From: Bacilli bacterium
GTDB taxonomy: Bacteria; Bacillota_I; Bacilli_A; RF39; UBA660
NCBI GenBank assembly: GCA_035379765.1
Contig: DAOSVX010000001.1
Coordinates: forward strand, 1 to 39,812
Direction of reading: 5' to 3'
DNA: 39,812 nt
The notes beneath the pieces were generated by a model. It worked only from the letters and a program-made list of their open reading frames with translations. It did not search any database and was not told the origin of the DNA. Shown piece after piece: positions 3,015 through 17,967 of this stretch. How positions within the stretch are numbered: position 1 is the stretch's first letter; the number at the start of each line of letters is the position of its first letter. Made by a program: the position numbers and the translations under genes.

Positions 3015-3209
3015 TTAAACAATCTTAATGAGTCCTCTTTCTAATTCTTCCAGTGCTCTACCCAATTCTCTTTTATTTTTATATTCACTATCTTTTAATT
3101 GAAAATGTTTTTCTTGTAACATTTCTTTACTTCTTTTAGAAGCTACATAGACTAGAATATATTTTGAGTCAACTAAGTTTAGCAATTTATCAATTGATGG
3201 ATAAATCAT
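3015..3209 (-). CDS. rpoZ: DNA-directed RNA polymerase subunit omega
   Basis: MIYPSIDKLLNLVDSKYILVYVASKRSKEM matches the conserved RpoZ N-terminus of Firmicutes. I prefer the ATG at 3209 over the GTG at 3218 used by the ORF track, because AAGGA lies upstream of the ATG. Confidence 0.8.
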   Translation of the reverse strand: MIYPSIDKLLNLVDSKYILVYVASKRSKEMLQEKHFQLKDSEYKNKRELGRALEELERGLIKIV

Positions 3210-3283
3210 AACTCTCACGTCCTTACAATTATATTTTACTAAACTTTTTATAATTTATATTGATTTTACAAAAAAATATACAT

Positions 3284-5116
3284 TTATTTTACACAATTTC
3301 TTAAAGCATCTAAAATAACCACCATAGCCCAAGTATCTTGTTGACAATATTTTATTAAAGATTCTCTCCTTATTTCTAGTTCTTCTTTAGTTAAATGAGG
3401 ATAATTAGCATATTCAACTATCGCTTCAGTACCATTTTGGACATCTAAAGTTTTATAAGATAAATCACTAAAAACTGGTAAAGTCTTTTTTATTGAGTAA
3501 GATCCACTAAAGCGATAATCATAATAATTTAATCTTTTAGCTTCTTCTTCATCAAAACCTAAAGTCATATATATATCTTTTTTGGTTTTTAAAATATCTA
3601 TTAAATCAAACCCACGATCATATATTTTCATTAGATCTTTTTGATACTTAGGAAATATTTCTCCTAAACGTTTAATGCATTTCTTTTCAAAAGAAACATT
3701 TTGAGCAAATAAAGTACCTTTGCTGCCATCAATTAACTCTACTAATTTTTTAACTAACTCTTCTCTTTCGTCATTAAAACTATGAGCTAGAAAAACAAAG
3801 TTATCTTTTTCTTTATCACATTTACCTGGTTCATTTTCAATATGTAAGCTAAATTCAAATGGTGATTGTTCATAACACTTTTCTCCTTTAAATCTTGGTA
3901 TAGGGCAAGGAAATGTTTCAAAATCCAAATGATATATTGGGTATTTTAAAGATTCAATAACTACTTTTAATTTTTCTTTATTAATATATGGCTTTTTAGT
4001 TATTAAAGCATTTCTTTCTATATGATGATTAGGATTTCTAATCCAGCTTTCGGGTATATCTAGCATATTTATATAACCTTCATTAATTAAATTTAAACCT
4101 TGATGATAATCCCCTTTTTCGTCTTTAAAACCATGTTGATTATCAATATAATTTAAAGATGAATTATATTCTGGTATCATAGAACCACATATTTTCTTAA
4201 AATACTTACATTCTGTTGGTTTCTTATACTCACAATAACAACCTAAATTAACTTCTTTTAAATTATTTTCTTTTAGATAACTTTCTAATAATATTCTATC
4301 TTTATCAATAATTGGTAACATTTCTTTAGTTAATTTAGTCATATCCATAAAAGTAATTATTTCATTACCATTTAAATCTGTTTCATATTCGCTTTTTCCA
4401 TCATAGATATATTCATGATTTAAAACCGCTAGATAATAATTAAAATTAACTAACTTAGCTTCATTATGACTTTCTTTATATTCCCCTTCAATAATATATC
4501 TTTGAACACTTAAATCATAAACATATTTACCAATATCATATCTATCTAATAGTTTATTTCTTTTCTTAGTATATGTTTCTAACTCTTTATCAATAAAAGA
4601 ATAATTAACTTCATCTTTTAGATATAAAATATTATCTTTTTTAACAAACAAAGAATATGGTTCTTTATTAAAAGTACCAACTTCCAGATATTTTTTACTC
4701 GTAGTTGCTTTTACTTCTATAATATTAATGCTTTTTTCCGTTTCATTATAAACATCAACATAACAAAGATATTTAATACCATTTAAACTAAAATCAAAAC
4801 ACTCTTGATTAAAAGTATTAGAAGATGATACCACTTTACCACCAAAGGTCTTTAAAACAGATGCAGCAGCTAATTCTTCTACTTTAGAATAATATGGTAA
4901 CATAGCTTTTAATTGAGTATTTTCTACATCTATTAAATCCTCTTCATCTTCACTATACATCTTAGAAAATATTTCTTTTACTTTTTCTTCCTGTTCTTCT
5001 TTTAAATAATTCTCATACGAAATATCCGCATCTAAACGCTCTTTTTTAACTTCTTCTAATGCTATATATCTTCGGCATCTGGTATAATTAATAAAATTAG
5101 TTTTAGTTATTGCCAT
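3284..5116 (-). CDS. DUF2779-like protein (RecB/Cas4-like Cys-cluster region plus a DFET exonuclease-like motif)
   Basis: 610 aa. It has an N-terminal TKTNFINYTRCRRY, a Cys cluster CYCEYKKPTECKYFKKIC and the segment YHLDFETFPCPIPRF...SPFEFSLH, which I recall as characteristic of DUF2779. This is a family call from memory only. Confidence 0.55.
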   Translation of the reverse strand: MAITKTNFINYTRCRRYIALEEVKKERLDADISYENYLKEEQEEKVKEIFSKMYSEDEEDLIDVENTQLKAMLPYYSKVEELAAASVLKTFGGKVVSSSNTFNQECFDFSLNGIKYLCYVDVYNETEKSINIIEVKATTSKKYLEVGTFNKEPYSLFVKKDNILYLKDEVNYSFIDKELETYTKKRNKLLDRYDIGKYVYDLSVQRYIIEGEYKESHNEAKLVNFNYYLAVLNHEYIYDGKSEYETDLNGNEIITFMDMTKLTKEMLPIIDKDRILLESYLKENNLKEVNLGCYCEYKKPTECKYFKKICGSMIPEYNSSLNYIDNQHGFKDEKGDYHQGLNLINEGYINMLDIPESWIRNPNHHIERNALITKKPYINKEKLKVVIESLKYPIYHLDFETFPCPIPRFKGEKCYEQSPFEFSLHIENEPGKCDKEKDNFVFLAHSFNDEREELVKKLVELIDGSKGTLFAQNVSFEKKCIKRLGEIFPKYQKDLMKIYDRGFDLIDILKTKKDIYMTLGFDEEEAKRLNYYDYRFSGSYSIKKTLPVFSDLSYKTLDVQNGTEAIVEYANYPHLTKEELEIRRESLIKYCQQDTWAMVVILDALRNCVK

Positions 5117-5129
5117 ATAAAACCTCTAT

Positions 5130-6437
5130 CTAAAATGGCATTTTCATATTACCATTTTTCATTTGTTTCATCATTTTTTTCATTTCTTCAAATTGTTTTA
5201 GTAGTCTGTTTATCTCTTCGACACTTCTACCACTACCAGCTGCTATTCTTTTTTTTCTCGTAAAGTTTAAACAGTTAGGATTTTTTCTTTCGTAAGGAGT
5301 CATAGAAAGAATAATAGCTTCAATATGAAGTAATTGTTTAGGATCAACATTAATATTATTTAAGCCCATATTACGAGCTCCAGGTATTAATTTAAGCAAA
5401 TTTTCTAAAGGACCCATTTTTTTAATTTGTTTTAAATTAGTTAGAAAGTCTTCTAGATCATATTTACCTTTACGGATTTTTTTAGCTTGTTCTAAAGCTT
5501 CTTCTTTATCAATAACATCTTCTACTTTTGAAGCAATTGATAAAATATCACCCATACCCAAAATTCTTTCGGCCATTCTATCCGGATGAAATTCTGATAA
5601 GCCATCTAGTTTTTCCGAATCACCAACAAACTTAATTGGTACATTAGTTAAATGTCTTACTGATAGAGCTACACCACCTAAAGTATCACCATCTAATTTA
5701 GTTAAAATAGCTCCCGTTAGTTTTAGTTTTTCATTAAACCCATTTATAACATTTATAGCATCTTGACCCATCATCGCATCAATTACTAAAAGTATTTCAT
5801 TTGGTTTAGTTAATTCATTTATTTTTACTAATTCCGCCATTAGTTTATCATCAATATGCAGTCTTCCTGCTGTATCAATAATAATATAATCTTTATCATT
5901 TCCTTTGGCATAATCTAAAGAAGCTAAAGCTATTTCTTCAGGACTTTTATCCTTTAAAGTAAAAACATCGATATCAATTTCTTTACCAATAGTTTGTAAT
6001 TGATCTATAGCAGCTGGACGATATATATCACAAGCTACTAATAATGGTTTTTTATGATATTTTTTACGTAAATAATTAGCTAATTTACCAGCTGTCGTAG
6101 TTTTGCCAGAGCCTTGAAGACCAGCTAACATAATGATAGTTGGTTTTTTATTAGTTTCTAAAGGAGCATACTCTTTCCCTAGTAAGTCTACTAATTCATC
6201 TTTAACTAATTTCATAAATAGTTCTTCTGGTTTTAAACTTTTACTTACTTCTAAACCTAAAGCTTTTTCTTTAACATTATTAACAAATTCTTTAGCCACT
6301 TGATAATTTACATCAGCTTCTAATAAAGCTATTCTAATTTCTCTAATAGCATCACTTATATTATCTTCAGTTATTCTACCCATGCCTTTAATATTTTTAA
6401 AAGCCTTAGATAGTTTATCTCCCATTGCTTCAAACAT
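5130..6437 (-). CDS. ffh: Signal recognition particle protein Ffh
   Basis: 435 aa with GLQGSGKTTT, DTAGR and TKLDGD GTPase motifs, and a Met-rich C-terminal M domain. Confidence 0.95.
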   Translation of the reverse strand: MFEAMGDKLSKAFKNIKGMGRITEDNISDAIREIRIALLEADVNYQVAKEFVNNVKEKALGLEVSKSLKPEELFMKLVKDELVDLLGKEYAPLETNKKPTIIMLAGLQGSGKTTTAGKLANYLRKKYHKKPLLVACDIYRPAAIDQLQTIGKEIDIDVFTLKDKSPEEIALASLDYAKGNDKDYIIIDTAGRLHIDDKLMAELVKINELTKPNEILLVIDAMMGQDAINVINGFNEKLKLTGAILTKLDGDTLGGVALSVRHLTNVPIKFVGDSEKLDGLSEFHPDRMAERILGMGDILSIASKVEDVIDKEEALEQAKKIRKGKYDLEDFLTNLKQIKKMGPLENLLKLIPGARNMGLNNINVDPKQLLHIEAIILSMTPYERKNPNCLNFTRKKRIAAGSGRSVEEINRLLKQFEEMKKMMKQMKNGNMKMPF

Positions 6438-6732: not shown

Positions 6733-7710
6733 CTACATCATATCCTTAAATAAACCATATATATAGTTTTCTATATCAAATGGTTTTAAATCAGTCATTT
6801 TTTCTCCTAAACCAATAAACTTTACAGGTATATTAGTTTCTTCTTTTATAGCTAGGACTATACCACCTTTAGCAGTACCATCTAATTTAGTTAATACTAT
6901 TCCCGTTATATTAGTTATTTCTTTAAAAGAGATAGCTTGTTTTATACCATTTTGACCAGTAGTGGCATCTATTACTAAAAGGGTTTCTTCTGGAGCATTA
7001 GGAATAATAGTTCCAATTACTTTATTAATTTTTTCTAATTCTTTCATTAAATTAGCTTTATTTTGGAGTCTTCCGGCTGTATCAATTAAAACTATATCTA
7101 CTTTTTCTTTGACGGCTTCTTTTAATCCATCAAATATTAATCCCGCTGGATCACTATTTTCTTTACCAAAGAATAAACTTTTAGTTTTATCAGCCCAGAT
7201 CTTTAATTGCTCAGTAGCTCCAGCTCTAAAAGTGTCCCCTGCAATCATCATTACTTTTTTACCAGCACTCGTGTATTTATAAGCTAATTTACCTATAGTA
7301 GTAGTCTTACCTACTCCATTAACTCCAACCATTAATATTACCGTTGGACCATTTTCATTCATTTTAATTTTATCAGATAAAGATTCATTATTAACATAGA
7401 TAATAAATAGTTCATCAACAATTACTTCTTTTAATTCTTCGGGATTATCTATTTTTTCTTGTTTTACTCTTATTTTTAACTTTTCAATAAAATTCATAAC
7501 AGTTTTAACACCAATATCAGCCATAATCAAAATATCTTCTAGTTCTTCAAAGTATTCATCATTAACTTTAGTATATTTAATACCTAAAACATTTAATTTA
7601 GAAACAAATTCTTCCCTAGTTTTTTCTAAACCTTCTTCATAAACTTTTAAGTCTTCATTATTTTGATTAGATTTTTTTAAGATGTTTTTTAATTTATCAA
7701 AAATACCCAT
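6733..7710 (-). CDS. ftsY: Signal recognition particle receptor FtsY
   Basis: 325 aa with GVNGVGKTTT, DTAGR and TKLDGTAKGG motifs. Confidence 0.95.
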   Translation of the reverse strand: MGIFDKLKNILKKSNQNNEDLKVYEEGLEKTREEFVSKLNVLGIKYTKVNDEYFEELEDILIMADIGVKTVMNFIEKLKIRVKQEKIDNPEELKEVIVDELFIIYVNNESLSDKIKMNENGPTVILMVGVNGVGKTTTIGKLAYKYTSAGKKVMMIAGDTFRAGATEQLKIWADKTKSLFFGKENSDPAGLIFDGLKEAVKEKVDIVLIDTAGRLQNKANLMKELEKINKVIGTIIPNAPEETLLVIDATTGQNGIKQAISFKEITNITGIVLTKLDGTAKGGIVLAIKEETNIPVKFIGLGEKMTDLKPFDIENYIYGLFKDMM

Positions 7711-7835
7711 ATAATCACCTCTTAAATTATAACAATTTTAAACTTTTTTAACAACTGAATAGACTTTTTTTTATAAATGTAGTATAATCACTTTAGTTTT
7801 AAACTTTTAATTTGTAACAAGAAAAGAGGAATTTT

Positions 7836-9512
7836 ATGAAATTTACAAATGATACGACTTCTGTCGTTGCTTTAGGTGGTTTAGGCGAAGTCGGAAAAAA
7901 CATGTATTTAGTATGTCATAATGATGAAATAATAATTATTGATGCGGGAGTTATGTTCCCTGAAGATAGTTTATTAGGAATTGATTATGTTATTCAAGAT
8001 ATTAGTTTTTTAAAACAAAATGAAAAAAAAATAAAATGTTTAATTATTACTCATGGTCATGAAGATCATATTGGTGGTATACCATTTTTATTACAAAGTG
8101 TTAATATACCTAAAATATATGCTTCTAAAATAGCTACTGATTTAATTACTAAAAAATTAGTAGAACGTAATATTAATTATAATAATATGGAAATACTTGA
8201 TAAGAATACAATAATTAAAACTAGAAGATTTAGAATTAGTACAGTTATAATGACTCACTCTATTCCAGATGCTTTTGGGCTTATTATTGAAACACCTCAA
8301 GGAACTATTGTGGAAACCGGAGATTTCAAATTTGATTTAACTCCTGTTGGACCAATGGCTGAACTAGATAAGTTAGTTGAAGCTTCTAAAAGAGGCGTTA
8401 AACTTTTAATGAGTGATTCTACTAATGCTTTAGTTCCCGGTTTTTCTAAGAGTGAAAGCATTGTTGATACAGCTTTAAATGATATCTTTGCTAAACATTT
8501 AGGAAGAATTATTATTGCTACTTTCGCTTCTAATATCTATCGTTTACAACATATAATTGAAACCTGTAAGAAAAACAATCGAAAAATAGTTACCTTTGGG
8601 CGTAGTATGGAAAATGCAATTAATATCGCTATTAAAAATAATTTAATAACTGATGAATCAATATTTATTGATATAAATACTGCTAACAATTTAAAAAAGA
8701 ATGAAGTGTGTATATTATGTACCGGTAGTCAAGGAGAACCTTTAGCAGCTTTATCAAGAATTGCTAACGGGACTTTTAAACAGATTAATTTGTTAGATGA
8801 TGATTTAGTTATCTTTTCATCTAGTCCAATACCTGGTAATGCTCATTCTATTAATAGAATTATTAATAAATTGTACTTAAAAGGTGTTCAAGTATACACC
8901 AATGAAAGTCAAAGTGATATTCATACTTCAGGGCATGCTAAGATGGAAGACTTAAAATTGATGTTAAGATTAGTTAAACCTGAGTATTTTATGCCTATGC
9001 ATGGTGAATATAGAATGTTAAAACAACATGCTGATTTGGCAGTATTATGTGATGTGCCAAGAGATCATACTTTTATTTTAAAAAATGGTGATGTTTTAAC
9101 TTTAACTAAAGATAAAGTAGAACAAACAGGTTCTGTCCAAGCTGGTGATGTTTATGTTGATGGATCTAGAGTTGGTGATGTCGGTAGTGCTGTTATAAAA
9201 GATCGTAAATTAATGAGTCGAGATGGTATTTTAGTAACTATTTTAAATATTGATCCTATTAGAAGAAAATTAATAATTAAACCAAATATTACGACAAGAG
9301 GATTTATCCTAGTTAATGAAAATGCTGAACTAATTAAAAAGATCGAAGATAAAGTAACAGAAATAGTTAATAAGGCTTTAGATAATAAATCTTATAACTT
9401 TGTGGATTTAAAAAACCAAATTATTTTAGAATTACTGCCTTTCTTAAATGAATTAACTGGTAGGAGACCAATTGTTCTTCCCGTTATTATGGAAGTAAAA
9501 GAAAGCAACTAA
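7836..9512 (+). CDS. rnj: Ribonuclease J
   Basis: 558 aa with the metallo-beta-lactamase motif THGHEDHIGG, beta-CASP architecture and a typical RNase J length. Confidence 0.9.
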   Translation: MKFTNDTTSVVALGGLGEVGKNMYLVCHNDEIIIIDAGVMFPEDSLLGIDYVIQDISFLKQNEKKIKCLIITHGHEDHIGGIPFLLQSVNIPKIYASKIATDLITKKLVERNINYNNMEILDKNTIIKTRRFRISTVIMTHSIPDAFGLIIETPQGTIVETGDFKFDLTPVGPMAELDKLVEASKRGVKLLMSDSTNALVPGFSKSESIVDTALNDIFAKHLGRIIIATFASNIYRLQHIIETCKKNNRKIVTFGRSMENAINIAIKNNLITDESIFIDINTANNLKKNEVCILCTGSQGEPLAALSRIANGTFKQINLLDDDLVIFSSSPIPGNAHSINRIINKLYLKGVQVYTNESQSDIHTSGHAKMEDLKLMLRLVKPEYFMPMHGEYRMLKQHADLAVLCDVPRDHTFILKNGDVLTLTKDKVEQTGSVQAGDVYVDGSRVGDVGSAVIKDRKLMSRDGILVTILNIDPIRRKLIIKPNITTRGFILVNENAELIKKIEDKVTEIVNKALDNKSYNFVDLKNQIILELLPFLNELTGRRPIVLPVIMEVKESN

Positions 9513-9549
9513 AAAGGATATTAAATAAAAATATCCTTTTTGTTTTTTT
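9512..9549. terminator. Bidirectional intrinsic terminator between rnj (+) and the DGR RT gene (-)
   Basis: A perfect 10-bp stem AAAAGGATAT / ATATCCTTTT (9512-9521 / 9531-9540) is followed by a T-run. Confidence 0.6.
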
Positions 9550-10597
9550 AAATTTTTTTGGTTATTATATCTTTTCTATCAATTTTCTTATACATTTTTT
9601 GTTTAAACAAAAAACTATTTGCATGCCCTGCATGAGCTACAAAACTATTCCATTCTAATAGCATTTTATGTTCATTTAATCTTTCTATTGAATTAAGTTT
9701 ATTCCACAATTTTATTTTCTTTTTTATTTGTTTCTTTGACCTAATTTTTAATAATTTATGGGTTTCATATATTATATAACCACAAAAATTAATTCCTAAT
9801 TTGTTTGGGTAATATTTGCTCTTTTTATTTAATTCTACTTTTAATCTTGTTTTTAAAAATTCTTCTATTATCCCCATTATCTTTTTTGCTTCTTCTTTAG
9901 ATTCTAGTAAAATAACAAAATCATCCATATACCTAACATAATATTTTATCTTTTGTTGTTCTTTTATATAATGATCTAAAACATCTAAATATATATTAGC
10001 AAAATACTGACTTGTGTAATTTCCAATTGGTATACCTTTATTTTCATCAGCAAATATAAATTTTTTTGTTAAAACCAATAATTTTTTGTCACTTATCATA
10101 TTTAACATAATATTTAATAAAATAGTTTTATCGATATTATGAAAAAAACCTTTTATATCGCATTTCAATATATAGTATTTATTGTATCTGCGTTTCATTT
10201 GTTGCATATATTTTTGAACTTTTGCAACTGCACTATGGGTTCCTCTATTGTCAATACAAGCAAATGTATCCGATATAAATCTTTGCATAACATAAGGCTT
10301 TATAAATTCATAAATGTACCATTGCTGAACTATTCTGTCCCTTAATGGTAAAGCTTTAATAACCCTTTCTTTCGGTTCATTTATAACAAATGTTTTGTAT
10401 TCTCCCATTTGATATATTCCCTTTTTTAATTGGTTAATTATATTCCATAAATTAGTTTCCAAATCTATACTAAAAATTAACACCTCCTTCTTTTTCGTTT
10501 TATTTTTTATTGACCTTTCGTAAGCTTGTAACATTTTTTCATACGTTAAATTTTTATAAAACAAGTTTTTTATTGTTTTAGACATGAATTTATCCAC
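9548..10597 (-). CDS. DGR-type reverse transcriptase
   Basis: 349 aa. It has the RT motifs LPLRDRIVQ, GIPIGNYTSQYFANIYL (the IGxxxSQ signature that distinguishes DGR RTs from group II intron QGxxxSP) and RYMDDFVIL (YxDD). There is no maturase or endonuclease extension. It overlaps the 3' end of avd by 28 nt. Confidence 0.9.
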   Translation of the reverse strand: MDKFMSKTIKNLFYKNLTYEKMLQAYERSIKNKTKKKEVLIFSIDLETNLWNIINQLKKGIYQMGEYKTFVINEPKERVIKALPLRDRIVQQWYIYEFIKPYVMQRFISDTFACIDNRGTHSAVAKVQKYMQQMKRRYNKYYILKCDIKGFFHNIDKTILLNIMLNMISDKKLLVLTKKFIFADENKGIPIGNYTSQYFANIYLDVLDHYIKEQQKIKYYVRYMDDFVILLESKEEAKKIMGIIEEFLKTRLKVELNKKSKYYPNKLGINFCGYIIYETHKLLKIRSKKQIKKKIKLWNKLNSIERLNEHKMLLEWNSFVAHAGHANSFLFKQKMYKKIDRKDIITKKI

Positions 10598-10926
10598 CCA
10601 CCTAGTAAGTTACATATATTCATTATTTTTTTACTCCATGCCGCATAGTTTTTAATATTAATATACTTCCTTTTTTTTGAAACTCTTATTAAAACTTTAA
10701 GCATTTTTAATGATACATCCAGCTCACTCAGTACTCTTATTCTGCTCTTCGTGTCTCTTGATTTTTGAGCTCTTATTATTAGTTTCATCCCATCATAAGT
10801 GTTATTTTTTATTTGCACACAAATGTTATTCTTTTCTATCTTCGGATACTTAACTAATATACTTTCAGTATAATATATTAACTCTAAATATTGCTTATAT
10901 ATAAGTAAATCTTCCAAATTATACAT
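10570..10926 (-). CDS. avd: Avd-like accessory variability determinant (four-helix-bundle / 23S rRNA IVS protein family)
   Basis: 118 aa, predicted all-helical and basic. Size, the YPKIEKNNICVQIKNN pattern and the position immediately upstream of, and overlapping, the RT all fit Avd. Confidence 0.75.
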   Translation of the reverse strand: MYNLEDLLIYKQYLELIYYTESILVKYPKIEKNNICVQIKNNTYDGMKLIIRAQKSRDTKSRIRVLSELDVSLKMLKVLIRVSKKRKYINIKNYAAWSKKIMNICNLLGGWINSCLKQ

Positions 10927-11287
10927 TAAGTACTTCTTTTAATTCTTTTAATAACTTTAACGCTTTTAAAGGTGTTGTGTTATCTATATCTAAATTTTTT
11001 ATTTTATTTAATAAATTTCTTTTTGCTTGTTCCACATCAATTTTATCTATTATTTCTACAACTAAATTTAAATTTTCAAATATATTCGTATATTTTTCAA
11101 TAGAATTAGTTGGAAACCCACATTTTACAACTTCGTCATTCAGTTTAGTTAATTTTAAGGTGGTTATTTTATTTATATTCTTGGCATCTTCATCCAAAAA
11201 TAAATAAAAATTCCCACATTTAAACAAATAGTATTTACTATTATCTATTTGTTTTAATTCTAAATATTTTTTATATAATTTACCCAT
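10919..11287 (-). CDS. Mini-MutS-like DGR accessory protein (MutS domain I plus the MutS C-terminal helix motif)
   Basis: 122 aa. Residues 5-38, YKKYLELKQIDNSKYYLFKCGNFYLFLDEDAKNI, align with E. coli MutS 14-47, [41 protein letters not shown]...CGFPTNSIEKY aligns with ISLTKRG...AGIPYHAVENY. The C-terminal NLDIDNTTPLKALKLLKELKEVL aligns with the MutS end [23 protein letters not shown]. The RBS AGAGGAG lies upstream, and the gene overlaps avd by 8 nt. Confidence 0.7.
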   Translation of the reverse strand: MGKLYKKYLELKQIDNSKYYLFKCGNFYLFLDEDAKNINKITTLKLTKLNDEVVKCGFPTNSIEKYTNIFENLNLVVEIIDKIDVEQAKRNLLNKIKNLDIDNTTPLKALKLLKELKEVLNV

Positions 11288-11515
11288 TTTTTCTCCTCTT
11301 TTTATTCTTTTTGATAGAAAAAAGGTAGTATTGTATATACTATTCCCTATTTTCCATAAAATTTCATTTTCGCCATTTTGTTACTCATATAATTTTATTA
11401 TTAATGTTTTAGTTCTCTTAAAGAACGGGAACTAAACTTTTACTATAAACATTTCACTATAATATCCTTGAATATTATAACCTGAATGAAGAATTTCTTA
11501 TATATAGTAATCTCA

Positions 11516-11648
11516 CAACACAAGACCGCGCCACGATATGTTGCTGTTCGCGTTCCCGTTCGTATTGTTGAGATTGAACCCACCGGCCCCTACACCGTTG
11601 TTATAGTTGCCTCCACGTATGAACCATGGATTAGTCGCATTGACAAAA
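11516..11648 (-). repeat. DGR template repeat (TR)
   Basis: This non-coding 133-bp copy of 11851-11983 has no indels. On the minus strand it holds 12 AAY codons in the VR reading frame. 15 of the 17 differences from VR are at TR adenines. Confidence 0.9.
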
Positions 11649-11828: not shown

Positions 11829-11847
11829 TCTTAGGCTTCGCCTAAGA
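11829..11847 (-). promoter_or_regulatory. Hairpin/cruciform element immediately 3' of VR (candidate DGR target-recognition element)
   Basis: On the minus strand, TCTTAGGC-GAA-GCCTAAGA forms an 8-bp stem that includes the target TAG stop codon. It starts 4 nt after VR/TR homology ends and has no counterpart next to TR. Confidence 0.6.
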
Positions 11848-13578
11848 AGTCAACACAAGACCGCGCCACGATATGCTGCTGTTCGCGCGCCCGTGCGTAA
11901 TGTTGAGACTGAACCCACCGTCCCCCACACCGTCGCCATAGTAGCCTCCACGCAGGAACCATGGATTACGCGCAGTGACAAAATTATTCCAGTCTTTATA
12001 CCAGTAATTTGTCTCTCCTAAGGCTTCTCCTAGATTACTTGTATTACTCTGCCAACTTGTGGTTATATATAATTTATAATATTTGCTATTAGGATAATCT
12101 AGTCCGGTGGTATTACTTGTTATACCTGAATCACATCCTGTATATGTTGGATCTCCATATATTCCCTTATACCCACTGTGATATATGTTACATCTACCGG
12201 AATATAAATTAGATGATGCATCTGTATATACTCCCATTTGATATTCCCATGCTCCTCCACTCATATCAAATATGCCATATATATTCCCGGTTGTACTTTG
12301 GGGATATGAGCTTACTCCACTTCCATAAGCTATTTCACAACTGGATGTTGCTGCAGCATTTGCAGCACTTGCTCCACATCCGGTTGTATAGTTACTATTA
12401 TTGTTTATTCTTATCTCATCGTTTATTCCATATTCGGAATAACTTAAATATACTACTGCTCCCCAGTCTACATTCTTACTCATTCTACTCTCTGCACTTA
12501 TTCCATAAATTGAGTCTGTTCCAAATTTTAATGATGTTATAAATTCTGTCGATACATTTTGATTTCTTAATGATGCGACATTTGGTTTTATGGTTGGGCT
12601 TACATCTGTACAGTTAGCTTCACTTGGACTTGTTGCACATGTACTTCCTGCTAACGGTGTTGTTTCAAATTTTCCTACCCAGATTCCATTTAATTCTATT
12701 CCATTATATGTGAAAGCGGGATGAGTTAACTCTGTTCCATTAGTACTTCCTGTACTTTTGGTTGTATAGGCGTTTTCAAATGTTATACTTATACTTTGAG
12801 GACAATTCGCTGTACAAGTTGTATCATCACTATATGTTGCTGCTGTTCCATCTACATTAAATAAGGTATATCTATATCTTGGTATCCATACTAAATATGC
12901 TAAGATATCTGCTTCGGCTACTGTTACTCCATTATTTGTTTCATAGTATGTTCTCGTCTCAGTTCCACTTTCTTTTACTAATACTACATTAGCCCATTGT
13001 TTATTTTCATAGCTATACCAACTACTACTCGTTGGGCTTACTGTTGTTACTGTTCCATCATTTCCTATTGTTACAGCGATCATTCCCGTAGAAATTCTTG
13101 GGTAAGCTCCATTTAAGATACTTTCTTTATACACGCTATAACTTGCTATTAATCCTGAACAGCCATCAAACCCTGATGTTTCTGTTTGCAGTGTGGTATC
13201 TACTTCTACTCCTCCTAATGTACTTCCTGTTACTGAGTTCTTACCATTTGTATACCATATTACATTGGTATCTCCTATTAATACTGAGCCTTTATAACTA
13301 CTACTAAAGCTTTTATCGACATATCCTGCTGCTTCTAGATATTCGATACTATAGCAATAGCCACTTTCTGTACTTCTGGTTAAATCATTATTTAATAAAT
13401 CATCAGCATAAGCTGATTTAGCTGCTTTACCGATATTCTCGGCTTCTATCTCAAAAGCATTAGCTTTAGCATTATCCATCATTTTTAAGACACTTGGGAC
13501 TGCTAGAAGAACAAGAACTGCTAGTATGACTATAACTGCTAATAATTCTACTAATGTAAAACCCTGCTTTTTTTTCAT
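11842..13578 (-). CDS. DGR target protein: prepilin-type N-terminal cleavage/methylation domain plus a C-terminal FGE-sulfatase/C-type-lectin-like variable domain
   Basis: 578 aa. The N-terminus MKKKQG|FTLVELLAVIVILAVLV matches the class III (type IV pilin/pseudopilin) signal G|FTLxE. HPAF...GIWVGKFETT and IFDMSGGAWEY resemble FGE-like domain motifs (compare DMSGNVWEW). The VR lies at the extreme C-terminus. Composition is rich in S/T/G/Y/N, unlike the K/E/I-rich neighbouring proteins. Confidence 0.9.
   Translation of the reverse strand: MKKKQGFTLVELLAVIVILAVLVLLAVPSVLKMMDNAKANAFEIEAENIGKAAKSAYADDLLNNDLTRSTESGYCYSIEYLEAAGYVDKSFSSSYKGSVLIGDTNVIWYTNGKNSVTGSTLGGVEVDTTLQTETSGFDGCSGLIASYSVYKESILNGAYPRISTGMIAVTIGNDGTVTTVSPTSSSWYSYENKQWANVVLVKESGTETRTYYETNNGVTVAEADILAYLVWIPRYRYTLFNVDGTAATYSDDTTCTANCPQSISITFENAYTTKSTGSTNGTELTHPAFTYNGIELNGIWVGKFETTPLAGSTCATSPSEANCTDVSPTIKPNVASLRNQNVSTEFITSLKFGTDSIYGISAESRMSKNVDWGAVVYLSYSEYGINDEIRINNNSNYTTGCGASAANAAATSSCEIAYGSGVSSYPQSTTGNIYGIFDMSGGAWEYQMGVYTDASSNLYSGRCNIYHSGYKGIYGDPTYTGCDSGITSNTTGLDYPNSKYYKLYITTSWQSNTSNLGEALGETNYWYKDWNNFVTARNPWFLRGGYYGDGVGDGGFSLNITHGRANSSISWRGLVLTS
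11851..11983 (-). repeat. DGR variable repeat (VR), covering the last ~44 codons of the target gene
   Basis: See TR. It encodes FVTARNPWFLRGGYYGDGVGDGGFSLNITHGRANSSISWRGLVL, whereas the TR-encoded sequence is FVNATNPWFIRGGNYNNGVGAGGFNLNNTNGNANSNISWRGLVL. Confidence 0.9.
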
Positions 13579-13601
13579 CCTCGTCTCCTCCTTTCTTTTT
13601 T

Positions 13602-13631
13602 ATTATACTTTTTCAATTGCTGGTTTGTCAA
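13602..13631 (-). promoter_or_regulatory. Consensus sigma-A promoter of the DGR target gene
   Basis: On the minus strand, TTGACA (13631-13626), an 18-nt spacer and TATAAT (13607-13602). The RBS AAAGGAGGAG follows, 8 nt before the ATG at 13578. Confidence 0.65.
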
Positions 13632-13642
13632 CTATGCATTCA

Positions 13643-13662
13643 AAAAAAGCACCAAGTGCTTT
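13643..13662 (-). terminator. Intrinsic terminator of rny
   Basis: On the minus strand, AAAGCAC-TTG-GTGCTTT is followed by TTTTTG directly after the rny stop codon. Confidence 0.6.
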
Positions 13663-15216
13663 TTATTTGGCTTCTTCTTGAGCTCTAGTTTCTCTAATAA
13701 CTATTATTTTTATAGTACCTGGGTATTGCATTTCTTTTTCTATTTTTTCTTTCATTTCCCGAGCTATTTTATAACTAGTTACATCATCTACATCTTCTGG
13801 TTTAACTATAACTCTAACTTCTCTACCAGCTTGCATTGCATAAGTTTTTTCTACTCCTTCATAAGAATTACCAATGCTTTCTAGTTGTTCTAATCTCTTA
13901 ACATAGTTTTCTAATGAATCATTTCTAGCTCCTGGTCTAGAAGCACTTAAGGTATCAGCAATTTGTACTAATACAGCAATTACTGAACTAGGTTCTTTAT
14001 CACCATGATGAGACAATATAGCATTTAATACTACTTCATCTTCGCCATAACGACGAGCTATTTCTTCTCCTATTTCAACATGGCTTCCTTCAATTTCGGT
14101 ATCAATTGCTTTTCCTATATCATGAAGCAATCCAGCCCTTTTAGCTATAGTAACATTTTCACCTAATTCACTAGCCATAATACCAGCTAAATTAGCTACT
14201 TCTTTAGAATGCATTAAAGCATTTTGCCCATAACTAGTTCTAAATTTTAATTTCCCAATTAAATTTACTAGTTCCGGATCTACTTTCGTAATCCCTAATT
14301 CATATAAAGCTTCTGTACCTATTTCGGTAACTTTGGTATTCATGTCTTTACAGACTTTATCATATAATTCTTCAATACGAGAGGGATGAATTCTCCCATC
14401 TTTAATTAAAGATTCAATAGTTACTTTAGCTATTTCTCTACGGAATGGATCAAATGAAGAAATAACAATGGCCTCGGGGGTATCATCAATTATTAAATCT
14501 ACTCCTGTTACCGCTTCAATGGTCCTTATGTTTCTTCCTTCGCGACCAATTAAGCGCCCTTTCATTTCATCATTTGGTAAATCAATTACACTAACTGTTT
14601 GTTCTGTGGTAACATCATTAGCATATCTTTGCATGCTACTAACTAACATATTTTTGGCTTTTTTATCAACCTCTAATTTTGCTTCGCTTTCTTTTTCTTT
14701 AATATAAGAAGCGATTTCTTTTGCCATCTCACCTTCAACCCGTTTTAATATCATGTCATGAGCTTCTTTTTTAGAGACTTTGGCAACACCCTCTAAAACT
14801 TTAATTTCTTCCTTCAACAATTCATCCATTTTAGCTTCTTTTTTTTGGACTTCTTTTTGCATATTACTTAAATTATCATCTTTTTGATTTAAAAGATTAT
14901 CTCTATTTTGAAGCATTTCTTCACGTTTATCTAAATTTTTCTCACGTTGCATTAATCTATCTTCATTTGATTTTAGTTCATTCTTTTTTTCTCTAATTTC
15001 CTTTTCGGCTTCTTGCTTTAATTTATAAGACTCTTCTTTTAATTCTAAAATACTATCACGCTTATATTTATCAGCTTCTTTTTTAGCCTCAGATAATAAT
15101 TTTTCCACTTTTCTATCAGTTTGCTTACGACTTACAACAAATATCGTCGCTGTAACTCCTCCGCCAACTGCCAATCCAATTATTGAAGTTAAAATGGAGA
15201 AAGTATTAAATACCAT
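13663..15216 (-). CDS. rny: Ribonuclease Y
   Basis: 517 aa with an N-terminal TM helix, a coiled coil, a KH domain ([12 protein letters not shown]) and an HD domain (LLHDIGKA). Confidence 0.95.
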
Positions 15217-15320
15217 ACTAATTCTCCTCCATTTATTTATTTATAAACATTTAACTTTTTTTAAACATCTACAAATTAATTATATCTTTTTTTAAGTGCA
15301 AAATCAATCATAAAAAGATA

Positions 15321-16352
15321 CTATTTTGTAGTATCTTTTTCTTTAGTACTATTAATATTATAATGAGCACGAACTTTACTTTCTATCTCATCTTTTAACT
15401 TTTTATTATCTTTTAACAACTGTTTTACGTTTTCTTTACCTTGACCTATTTTTTCACCTTTATAAGAATACCAAGCCCCACTTTTCTCTATAACATTTAT
15501 ATCGCTTGCCAAATCAACTAATTCACCTTCACGGCTTACGCCTTCCCCATATATTATATCGACAATTGCTGTTCTAAATGGTGGAGCAACTTTATTTTTA
15601 ACGACTTTTACTACCGTTCTGTTTCCAACCACTCCGCTCTCATTTTTAATTTGCTCAGCTCTCCTAATATCAAGTCTAATTGTTGAATAAAATTTTAAAG
15701 CTCTTCCCCCAGGAGTAGTTTCGGGATTGCCAAACATAACTCCTACTTTTTCTCTTAATTGATTTATAAAAATAGCTGTTGTTTGGGTTTTGCTAATAGT
15801 TCCTGATAGCTTACGTAAAGCTTGACTCATTAATCTGGCTTGAAGCCCAACATGGGAATCACCCATTTCCCCCTCAATTTCAGCTTGGGGAACTAAAGCA
15901 GCCACGGAATCAATAACAATTGTATTAACTGCTTCGCTTCTAACTAATGCTTCACATATTTCTAAAGCTTGTTCTCCTGTATCTGGCTGAGAAAGCAACA
16001 GTTCATCTATATTAACTCCCAAAGCTTTAGCATACTTAGGATCTAAAGCATGTTCAGCATCTATAAATGCTGCCCTTCCACCAGCTTTTTGAGTTTCAGC
16101 TATAGCTTGCAAAGCAAAAGTTGTTTTTCCACTAGATTCAGGTCCAAATATTTCCACTATTCGTCCTTTGGGATATCCTCCTACTCCTAAAGCAATATCT
16201 AATGTTAAACTTCCTGAAGAAGTTACATCTATATCTAAATGTTCTTTTGCTCCCAATTTCATTATGGCTCCTTTGCCAAATTGTTTTTCAATATCTAGCA
16301 TTACTTGTTCTAATGCTTTATCTTTATCTTTAATGTCTTTTGTAACTTTCAT
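15321..16352 (-). CDS. recA: Recombinase RecA
   Basis: 343 aa with GPESSGKTT (Walker A), IVIDSVAAL and many other RecA-conserved blocks. Confidence 0.97.
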
Positions 16353-16393
16353 AAATGCTTTTCCTCCTTATGGTATTTATGTCTTACAAGATA

Positions 16394-16445
16394 ATTTTAA
16401 TATAATATTTTTAGTTTGTCAATATGTTTTTCAAACATTTGTTTG
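16394..16445 (-). promoter_or_regulatory. Putative recA promoter with an upstream palindrome (degenerate Cheo/LexA-box-like)
   Basis: On the minus strand, the palindrome CAAACA-AA-TGTTTG (16445-16432) is followed 9 nt later by TTGACA (16422-16417). A 17-nt spacer and TAAAAT (16399-16394) come next. Confidence 0.4.
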
Positions 16446-16459
16446 TTATATATTTTTGA

Positions 16460-16492
16460 TCAAAAGAAAGGAAATTGCTAAGCAATTTCCTT
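16460..16492 (-). terminator. Intrinsic terminator after pgsA
   Basis: An 11-bp stem AAGGAAATTGC / GCAATTTCCTT with a 3-nt loop is followed on the minus strand by TCTTTTG. Confidence 0.65.
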
Positions 16493-16519
16493 GTTTTAAA
16501 GCACTATATTTTACTAATT

Positions 16520-17116
16520 TTATTTTTCCGCAAAAATGAAATCTTTATTAGCAATAAAATATTGACACCCTGATACTACTGATAATACTGTTGCCACAAA
16601 AATTAATAACTCAGCCACTCTAATATTCCATAATTCAAATGGTAAATTGGAAAAGAGTAATAAAGAAATACCTATCATCATACAAACGGTTTTTACTTTG
16701 CCAAGCCAACCAGCAGCTATTACTTTGCCTTTACCTGCTGAAGCCATTCTTACCGAGTCAACTACTATATCTCTAGTAACAATAACCACTGGAATTATAA
16801 CCGAAATATAACCATTAACAGCTAGAACTATTAATACTCCGTTAACTAATATTTTATCAGCTATCGCATCCATTATTTTCCCAAAATCTGTTACTATTCC
16901 TCTTTTACGAGCGATGTTACCATCTAAGAAGTCCGAAAAGGAAGCAATCATAAAAACTATCCCGGCTATTATATATTTTAAATTCAAAGCTATTTTAGAA
17001 GCAATATAATAGGTAGGAAATTCAACTCCTACTTGATAAAAAGGAAACACTAATAATATTAAAAGTAATATTGCCAATATAATTCTTGTAATAGTTATCT
17101 TATTTGGTAAATTCAT
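16520..17116 (-). CDS. pgsA: CDP-diacylglycerol--glycerol-3-phosphate 3-phosphatidyltransferase
   Basis: 198 aa, polytopic, with the CDP-alcohol phosphatidyltransferase motif DFLDGNIARK...G...D...DK. Confidence 0.9.
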   Translation of the reverse strand: MNLPNKITITRIILAILLLILLVFPFYQVGVEFPTYYIASKIALNLKYIIAGIVFMIASFSDFLDGNIARKRGIVTDFGKIMDAIADKILVNGVLIVLAVNGYISVIIPVVIVTRDIVVDSVRMASAGKGKVIAAGWLGKVKTVCMMIGISLLLFSNLPFELWNIRVAELLIFVATVLSVVSGCQYFIANKDFIFAEK

Positions 17117-17126
17117 TTTCCACTCC

Positions 17127-17606
17127 TTAATTTATTCCTGCTATAGTAGCTATATTATTACCAATAGTAATTTGTCTTATAGACCAATATATAGCTATAG
17201 CCACTATTAAACCAATTATAATATAAATTAAAATAAACTTTAAACTTTGGTGTTTGCTTTTTATATTAGTATAAGGAGACTTTACTTTATCATCCTCTTT
17301 TGCTTCACTGTTTTTTTCTTGAACAGCTTTTTCAATAGCTTTTAAAGGTATTTTAGAAGTATACTCAAATAAATATTCATTAAAAACATCAATTACCTTT
17401 TCAGGATCTAATCCTAAATATTTAGCATATTTTCTAATATATTCTTTTAAAATAAAAATATCTTTAAAACTACCAATGTTACCATTTTCAATATTCTCTA
17501 ATATAATAACTTTAATACTTAAATCTTCGGATGCTTCTTCAATAGAAACACTATTTTTTTCTCTTGCTGAAGCAAGCATTTGGCCAATTTCGTTCAAGAA
17601 ATTCAA
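17127..17606 (-). CDS. RodZ/YmfM-like helix-turn-helix membrane protein
   Basis: 159 aa with an N-terminal XRE-type HTH and one C-terminal TM helix. It lies upstream of pgsA, as ymfM does in Bacillus. Confidence 0.65.
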   Translation of the reverse strand: MNFLNEIGQMLASAREKNSVSIEEASEDLSIKVIILENIENGNIGSFKDIFILKEYIRKYAKYLGLDPEKVIDVFNEYLFEYTSKIPLKAIEKAVQEKNSEAKEDDKVKSPYTNIKSKHQSLKFILIYIIIGLIVAIAIYWSIRQITIGNNIATIAGIN

Positions 17607-17628
17607 CTCCTTTTAAAATAAAATAAAT

Positions 17629-17967
17629 AATATCTTATAAGCCACGTTCTGTACCTATTTCTAGGCGGCAAATATTTATCTACTATTACTAGTTTCTTAT
17701 ATAAGTTTTTTATTCCTTATATAAAAACTCCCCTACCTAATTTGGGTTTCTCACTCGCGGGGTTTACCACGTTCCACTATTAAAGTTTCCTCTAACACTC
17801 GTCTCTTTGGCACTTTTATATCTAATTTAACCATTTGAGGTTATTTCGAAGCCGTTAGTTAAACTACCAGTGGTTATCCCACTGCGCGAACACTACAACC
17901 ATTACAGGATTGTGTGAGCATGGACTTTCCTCTGCACAAAAATTTATGCAGCATTTGCCCAGATATT
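17629..17967 (-). ncRNA. rnpB: RNase P RNA (bacterial type B)
   Basis: The minus strand contains GAGGAAAGTCCATGCTCAC (P4 5' strand), GGTAAACCCCGCGAGTGAGAAACCCAAAT and ACAGAACGTGGCTTA (P4 3' strand). The terminal AATATCT / AGATATT pair as P1. It sits next to gpsB, as in B. subtilis. Ends are approximate (+/- 10 nt). Confidence 0.85.

Follow-up and report, generated by a model that had tools for sequence, protein, structure and literature searches.

No bacterial surface filament is more widespread than the type IV pilus, and the way such pili gain new binding functions is at present explained by modular pilins; diversity-generating retroelements (DGRs) are, adaptive immunity aside, the one natural system known to hypermutate proteins in a targeted way. 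Here we analyze a 39,812-nt stretch of DNA from a Bacilli bacterium (GenBank assembly GCA_035379765.1, contig DAOSVX010000001.1, positions 1 to 39,812 of the forward strand; hereafter, the window), in which a DGR diversifies a gene (11842..13578, minus strand; hereafter, the target) that probably encodes a modular minor type IV pilin with a C-type-lectin (CLec) head. We begin with the described systems that lie closest to it.

Lipoprotein display is known for the DGR variable proteins TvpA and Legionella LdtA. The target resembles TaqVP (5VF4) and TvpA-type proteins in its FGE-like CLec fold, for which TaqVP is the best structural match, in the C-terminal position of its variable repeat (VR), and in adenine-specific mutagenesis from a template repeat (TR), with Avd and reverse transcriptase (RT) genes adjacent; unlike these proteins, it carries a complete type IV pilin in front and has no lipobox. 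In Neisseria PilE, the exposed C-terminal part hypervaries while the α1 assembly helix stays constant. The target shares this C-terminal hypervariation of a type IV pilin with unchanged α1, but PilE is a major pilin altered by RecA-dependent gene conversion from silent pilS cassettes, whereas the target would be a probable minor pilin in which RT-based adenine mutagenesis acts on a grafted lectin module.

The closest match in architecture is found in the modular minor pilins of Streptococcus sanguinis, PilB with a vWA module and PilC with a ConA-like lectin module (Raynaud et al. 2021, PMC8179133). Like the target, these proteins combine a class III signal, a small pilin module that resembles major pilins, and a bulky C-terminal ligand-binding module in a Gram-positive lineage; their grafted modules are static, whereas the CLec module of the target is rewritten by a retroelement. 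Dataset S1 of the same paper holds eight proteins of the architecture IPR012902–IPR005532, with no DGR link drawn (PMC8179133). In Bacteroides, DGRs diversify the type V pilus tip pilins BfrT, BthT, and BunT (bioRxiv 10.1101/2024.11.15.621889). These share with the target a DGR-diversified CLec head on a pilus subunit, a cellular, non-phage genome, and an anaerobic community, but they are lipoprotein precursors that assemble by strand exchange on the diderm outer membrane, whereas the target has the marks of a type IV pilin (class III signal, α1-helix packing), belongs to a monoderm, and lies outside a pilus operon. The cassette itself follows Architecture D (Target-TR-MSL-avd-RT), whose MSL accessory class accounts for 16 of 372 DGRs in a survey that mentions neither pilins nor signal peptides (Wu et al. 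2018, PMC5758913); both have a small MutS domain I-like accessory protein, and there is no notable difference.

A preliminary description of this locus, made from the sequence alone, had stated that no experimentally characterized DGR target has this architecture. That statement fits the literature searched, where we found no paper in which a DGR is combined with a prepilin, type IV pilin, or pseudopilin, but it needs qualifying: The pilin–CLec architecture is listed in passing in two surveys, though it was never studied, and DGR-diversified type V pilins are known.

The Target Begins with a Complete Type IV Pilin

The target is an open reading frame (ORF) of 578 residues that runs from 13578 to 11842; the coordinates of the preliminary description are correct and the strand is minus, the plus-strand frame across the same interval being broken by many stops. 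An exact-sequence look-up matched the protein to NCBI HOP65421.1, which is recorded as [quoted passage not shown]

The N terminus, MKKKQGFTLVELLAVIVILAVLVLLAVP, matches the Pfam model N_methyl (PF07963) at 32.6 bits, against a gathering cut-off of 21.2, and TIGR02532 at 28.0 bits, against a cut-off of 16.3. A leader of six residues, MKKKQG (13561..13578, minus strand), adjoins the mature sequence FTLVELLAVIVILAVLVLLAVP, which gives Gly at −1, Phe at +1, and Glu at +5 with a hydrophobic stretch thereafter; the predicted prepilin-peptidase cut falls after Gly6. Gly−1, Phe+1, Glu+5, and Pro22-type residues matter for prepilin-peptidase cleavage and filament packing. An alignment of 61 full-length homologues shows no variation at F7, T8, L9, and E11, and conservation of 90% or more at G6 and P28 (mature Pro22). 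Such conservation argues against a chance match, and because an ordinary signal anchor would not conserve cleavage and packing residues, the class III signal proposed in the preliminary description can be taken as a real prepilin signal.

The resemblance to pilins extends well beyond the signal. In the AlphaFold2 (AF2) model of the target (mean pLDDT 83.2, pTM 0.74), an α1 helix spans residues 9–63 and strands follow at 73–77, 96–102, 106–110, and 115–118; the predicted structure thus has the pilin fold, with an α1 helix of ~55 residues and a small antiparallel β-sheet, and the cysteine pair of the module is Cys75/Cys140. Searched against the Protein Data Bank (PDB), the family profile found S. 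sanguinis PilE1 as its best match (8pfb; E = 3.7e-11, profile positions 6–101), followed by the filament-forming pilins geopilin, MshA, and PilA. With residues 1–125 of the pilin module as query, we recovered stand-alone pilins of 143–165 aa at up to 79% identity. A stand-alone pilin of 144 aa aligns over its whole length with residues 1–141 of the target at 68% identity; mature residues 1–29 are the same in the target, the 144-aa pilin, and a 160-aa pilin, and both cysteines are kept. Where the 144-aa pilin ends in FDTCNIA, the target runs on as FDGCSGLIASYSVYKESILNG. By this end-to-end identity the target is a full copy of the cell’s own pilin, to which a large module has been grafted near residues 143–150.

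Residues 1–143 (13150..13578, minus strand) are accordingly a complete pilin, more than a signal, and the pilin-type carrier claimed at the outset emerges stronger than it was put, having stand-alone paralogues. These paralogues very probably reside in the target’s own genome. The stand-alone pilin P0255 (“hypothetical protein PLX66_03585”) shares its locus-tag prefix with the MSL gene of the window (PLX66_00065), and P0261, of 160 aa, is present in just the three samples that contain window genes (JGI 3300010350, JGI 3300009772, and ENA ERZ27257475), in a locus ordered gyrB-gyrA-pilin144-pilin160 with 29% G+C. A degenerate DNA pattern of the shared pilin N terminus, run against metagenome contigs, returned one contig that was already known and nothing new.

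No cysteine that could serve as a lipobox precedes residue 75, where the first Cys of the target stands, so on its sequence the target is not a lipoprotein of the TvpA/LdtA type, in keeping with the preliminary description. It is instead a modular pilin in the sense of Raynaud et al. (2021): an IPR012902-type pilin module with an extra functional module.

Two loci bear further on the pilins of this group. The locus of the 144- and 160-aa pilins (L098, positions 1–2547 and 12720–14375), from the target’s organism or a sister of it, has very large surface proteins on its flanks, with VWA, Flg_new, and MucBP domains. In the sister species (L101, 13136–14581), another modular pilin joins N_methyl to Flg_new and Gly_rich_2; with this second modular pilin in view, one filament may contain several kinds of modular pilin.

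A CLec Module Carries the Variable Repeat

Residues ~150–578 (11845..13131, minus strand) are modeled mostly at pLDDT above 85. The best PDB match of the model in Foldseek is TaqVP (5vf4), the DGR variable protein of Thermus aquaticus (E = 1.5e-8, probability 1.0, TM 0.47–0.50 on target length), and the next matches, PvdO and EgtB, have the FGE-type CLec fold. PF03781 reaches 19.4 bits against a cut-off of 23.3, over aa 365–452 only. From these results together, the module shares the fold and is not a member of the curated family: The FGE-sulfatase/CLec-like domain of the preliminary description holds as a fold, with both quoted motifs (GIWVGKFETT and FDMSGGAWEY) present, and fails as PF03781 membership. 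The model places the VR on the CLec fold at its C-terminal end, as had been claimed, while the ~260 residues rich in S/T/G/Y that were placed ahead of it are no linker and dissolve into the whole pilin (1–143) and a single TaqVP-like module (~150–578). In the giant proteins P0366 (3713 aa), P0367 (4516 aa), and P0371 (4340 aa), five to six copies of the CLec module stand in tandem.

The Retroelement and Its Natural Variants

Downstream of the target, and like it on the minus strand, lie in order the TR (11516..11648), a gene for a 122-aa MutS domain I-like (MSL) accessory protein (10919..11287), the gene for the 118-aa accessory protein Avd (10570..10926), and the RT gene (9548..10597; 349 aa from a GTG start, 345 aa by gene callers). 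The MSL protein matches PF01624 at 43.9 bits, and its gene takes the same position in 9–10 related DGR loci. Avd scores 74.4 bits with PF22296 (bAvd; cut-off 40) and 72.9 bits with NF033474, just below the cut-off of 80. The RT matches RVT_1 at 71.2 bits and contains IGNYTSQ, which we take to be the DGR-typical RT motif; the RTs that follow related targets are 51–68% identical to it.

The TR/VR pair is real, with 133 nt at 87% identity, and the VR occupies 11851..11991 on the minus strand (core 11851–11983). Fifteen of its 17 mismatches fall at TR adenines. The other two, C>G and C>A at TR positions 15 and 63, may reflect point mutations that arose afterward or infrequent misincorporation at a base other than adenine. 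A second strain from another sample (L001) has an identical TR and an identical upstream flank of 3,000 nt, and all 21 of its TR/VR mismatches lie at TR adenines; its target gene differs from that of the window at 26 positions, 24 in the VR and 2 just 5′ of it. Four natural protein variants are identical over residues 1–529 and differ only within 530–569, the variation reaching codons 530 and 532 (up to 11991), past the VR core. Because the variants differ only in the VR and at template adenines, this canonical DGR is active, with evidence of ongoing mutagenic retrohoming.

Eighteen codons of the TR, which contains 35 adenines and 12 AAY codons, are variable; the possible proteins number ~10^18, and none of the codons can mutate to a stop. 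Directly 3′ of the VR, overlapping the stop codon, is an 8-bp hairpin with a GAA loop (11829..11847, minus strand; DNA fold −6.5 kcal/mol), as expected of a DGR target site; none follows the TR, and similar hairpins follow the VR in four related loci (L002, L010, L058, and L070). A conserved GA(C/T)TAC...TAT motif stands directly 3′ of the TR in the window (~11500–11515) and in every related cassette (L002, L006, L010, L038, L058, L068, and L070), and may mark the start of a spacer RNA that primes cDNA synthesis.

Distribution of the CLec Family and Its Carriers

The CLec family comprises 2,584 clusters at 50% identity (E below 1e-30). About half of the family has a prepilin N terminus: The motif is present in 83 of the 120 closest homologues and in 72 of 136 new 50%-identity representatives. 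The closed 1.31-Mb genome OZ006981.1 also contains a pilin-type member (L031). A species survey, with one genome per species, found family members almost only in uncultured Bacilli or “Tenericutes” metagenome-assembled genomes (MAGs), often in several copies per genome, and 38 of the 92 family ORFs in that survey were pilin-type. The TR-MSL-Avd-RT series with an adenine-biased VR recurs downstream of a member in nine loci. The pilin-type arrangement is thereby found in at least three other species: In three of the nine loci, L010, L038, and L070 (the last being Candidatus Fimihabitans intestinipullorum), the DGR target is pilin-type, passes TIGR02532, and has its own TR-MSL-Avd-RT.

Across the family ORFs of L002–L081, the ~430-aa CLec module is joined to at least four N-terminal types: the GFTLxE prepilin, one with GGTFAYFTW, one with GFAAVSTTLVING, and one with KGFAISG, which is prepilin-like and lacks Glu5. 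The last three matched no NCBIfam model, and a reading of the non-pilin N termini, GGTFAYFTW for example, as SipW/TasA-type signals was dropped as unsupported, there being no such match.

Two loci show other arrangements. In the MAG CAKOPG01 (L005, L006, and L007), the TR of L006 matches the VRs of three more family genes on other contigs, with adenine-biased mismatches in each (19/21, 22/25, and 15/20); by these repeats the L006 DGR is a multi-target element acting in trans, and all its targets have non-pilin N termini. In L002, target and TR occur twice (3079–5336 and 6867–9124), with VRs 100% identical, ahead of a single MSL-Avd-RT; the region was duplicated in tandem recently, or else the assembly is at fault.

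Gene Neighborhood

The window has 27% G+C and is a stretch of housekeeping chromosome, with the cassette set between rnj and rny/recA. To its left lie ftsY, ylxM, ffh, and rnj; past it come rny, recA, pgsA, a RodZ-like gene, RNase P RNA, gpsB, recU, and a class A penicillin-binding protein (PBP) gene, and further on nth, dnaD, cca, ezrA, rpsD, mscL, ABC exporters, uracil-DNA glycosylase, and clpB. The RNase P RNA is of bacterial class B (17633–17966, minus strand; 251.7 bits), which fits a Bacillota-type organism. Peptidoglycan and divisome genes in the window (PBP1, RodZ-like, EzrA, GpsB) show that the organism is walled. Gene order at the locus is unchanged in other samples.

A promoter-like site, a perfect TTGACA-18-TATAAT (13602..13631, minus strand) identified by its match to 12 of 12 consensus positions, precedes the start codon of the target by about 24 nt. 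Ahead of it, at 13644–13664, is a hairpin resembling a terminator of rny. The perfect sigma-70 consensus and the preceding terminator-like hairpin suggest that the target gene is transcribed on its own and strongly.

Pilus Machinery in the Group

The genes that would assemble such a filament are dispersed in the related group, so their absence near the target says little. At the right end of the window, all contigs found stop where it does, and beyond its left end there are housekeeping and transporter genes only. On one contig of a related MAG (L062), a Peptidase_A24 gene (34.3 bits) and a pilin-type member stand 10 kb apart. We considered the co-oriented run of genes upstream in L062 as a pilus operon and rejected it, since Pfam identified housekeeping genes and only the first ORF was a Peptidase_A24 fragment.

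A GspE/PilB-type ATPase (T2SSE, 400 bits) is encoded at 3924–5198 (minus strand) of L005, in a MAG that holds family members. This ATPase is short (~420 aa), occurs also at 10001–11266 in L092–L095, and keeps an identity of 83% or higher over more than 120 clusters from gut Bacilli, Erysipelotrichaceae, and Mycoplasmatota MAGs, the matches listed in the homologue search being gut relatives at or above that identity. Its neighbors are always unrelated genes, never a platform or pilin gene, even on a 1.3-Mb contig, and its conservation is unusually strong for a pilus ATPase. Two other candidates were set aside: The ATPase of L033 is Tad/VirB11-like, and the T2SSE of L071 belongs to a Tad/Flp locus adjoining a non-pilin member and gives no direct support. 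In that locus, from a Hadza gut MAG, TadE-like, CpaE-like ATPase, T2SSE, and two T2SSF genes (13165–17692) lie 2–6 kb downstream of the non-pilin member.

Interpretation and Alternative Explanations

We favor, as the probable account, a modular minor type IV pilin with a ligand-binding head that the DGR keeps re-randomizing. From its 133-nt TR the cassette rewrites the final ~140 nt of the target gene, with errors only at adenines. A prepilin peptidase would remove the leader and N-methylate Phe1, and the mature protein, whose α1 N terminus is identical to that of the stand-alone pilins, would probably co-polymerize with these small pilins through type IV pilus or Com-like machinery encoded elsewhere. 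Its bulk makes the filament tip the most likely location, and there the CLec head would act as an adhesin whose specificity a population could change quickly. For a wider picture our judgment is evenly balanced: a programmable pilus tip in small-genome Bacilli, formed by a DGR-rewritten lectin head on a copy of the cell’s own pilin, with the CLec cassette having moved between carriers (the type IV pilin and at least three other anchors).

Several observations weigh against the modular minor pilin. No pilus assembly genes were found within the 39.8-kb window, neither a prepilin peptidase nor a pilus ATPase nor a platform protein, as the preliminary description had also reported, and family members stand singly among housekeeping genes, outside pilus operons. 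More than half of the CLec family has other N termini, which makes the module independent of the pilin carrier. Most pilin-type paralogues have no adjacent DGR, and the TR of L010 does not match the paralogues L009 and L014, so no diversification in trans was seen there. The AF2 model is weak at residues 120–147, and tip location, adhesin role, and ligand are pure inference.

Some of these points lend weight to a receptor that uses the class III signal for insertion and processing only, remains in the cytoplasmic membrane by its hydrophobic α1 N terminus, and displays its CLec head, unpolymerized, at the cell surface. All pilins are bitopic membrane proteins before assembly, assembly genes are missing near the target and near related genes, and in over half of the family the module sits on other N-terminal hydrophobic anchors. 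We nevertheless think such a receptor unlikely: Glu+5 and Pro22, invariant or nearly so, matter for filament assembly rather than anchoring; the α1 N terminus is 100% identical to that of the stand-alone pilins; and in an organism with peptidoglycan, a head on a stalk of ~140 residues would need to cross the wall. Less probable again is a minor pilin of a short Com-type pseudopilus whose head has a role apart from adhesion to cells, for instance the capture of a variable extracellular substrate or DNA-associated material. Its best arguments are the closest NCBIfam full-model similarities, to ComGC, GspG, and ComGE, the NCBI name “type II secretion system protein,” and the short, solitary GspE-type ATPase of related MAGs; yet those similarities are all below cut-offs and no ComG equivalog model reaches threshold, and the several tandem stand-alone pilins of ~145–160 aa resemble the major pilins of a true pilus. 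Moreover, the ligands of the CLec DGR targets characterized to date are surface ligands.

Two further accounts are effectively refuted. One takes the likeness to a prepilin signal as an accident in an ordinary Sec signal anchor, the target then being a generic secreted or anchored DGR target. The motif is short, hydrophobic N termini are common, and with PF03781 below threshold the domain calls are weak; against this stand two curated hidden Markov models above their thresholds, motif residues invariant in 61 homologues, and likeness to real pilins over ~140 residues. The other, still more remote for this locus, is a receptor-binding protein of prophage or phage origin, resident in the chromosome with its DGR. 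Most gut DGRs are phage-borne, and cellular targets in Bacillota have been said to resemble phage receptor-binding proteins (bioRxiv 10.1101/2024.11.15.621889). Here, the cassette between rnj and rny/recA has no phage genes around it in 39.8 kb and keeps its synteny across samples, and the family gave no match in 50,697 phage genomes and two partial matches among 2.9 million viral contigs, in line with the earlier statement that the target is not a phage fibre.

Implications

The gain from the modular minor pilin is incremental rather than categorical, since earlier work had already described modular pilins, DGR targets of the CLec type, and the diversification of type V pilins by DGRs. As an object for use, the locus offers a compact natural scaffold—a pilin carrier, a CLec head, and a 1.9-kb cassette—for diversified binders on a surface filament. 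If true, the account would describe a system in which, for the first time, type IV pili are varied by a retroelement, mechanistically apart from both Neisseria pilE/pilS and the type V pilins of Bacteroides. With a modular type IV pilin as the object of a DGR, the two fields meet, and the combination predicts that in these poorly known small-genome Bacilli of gut and digester communities, the specificity of the pilus tip would be evolvable on ecological time scales.

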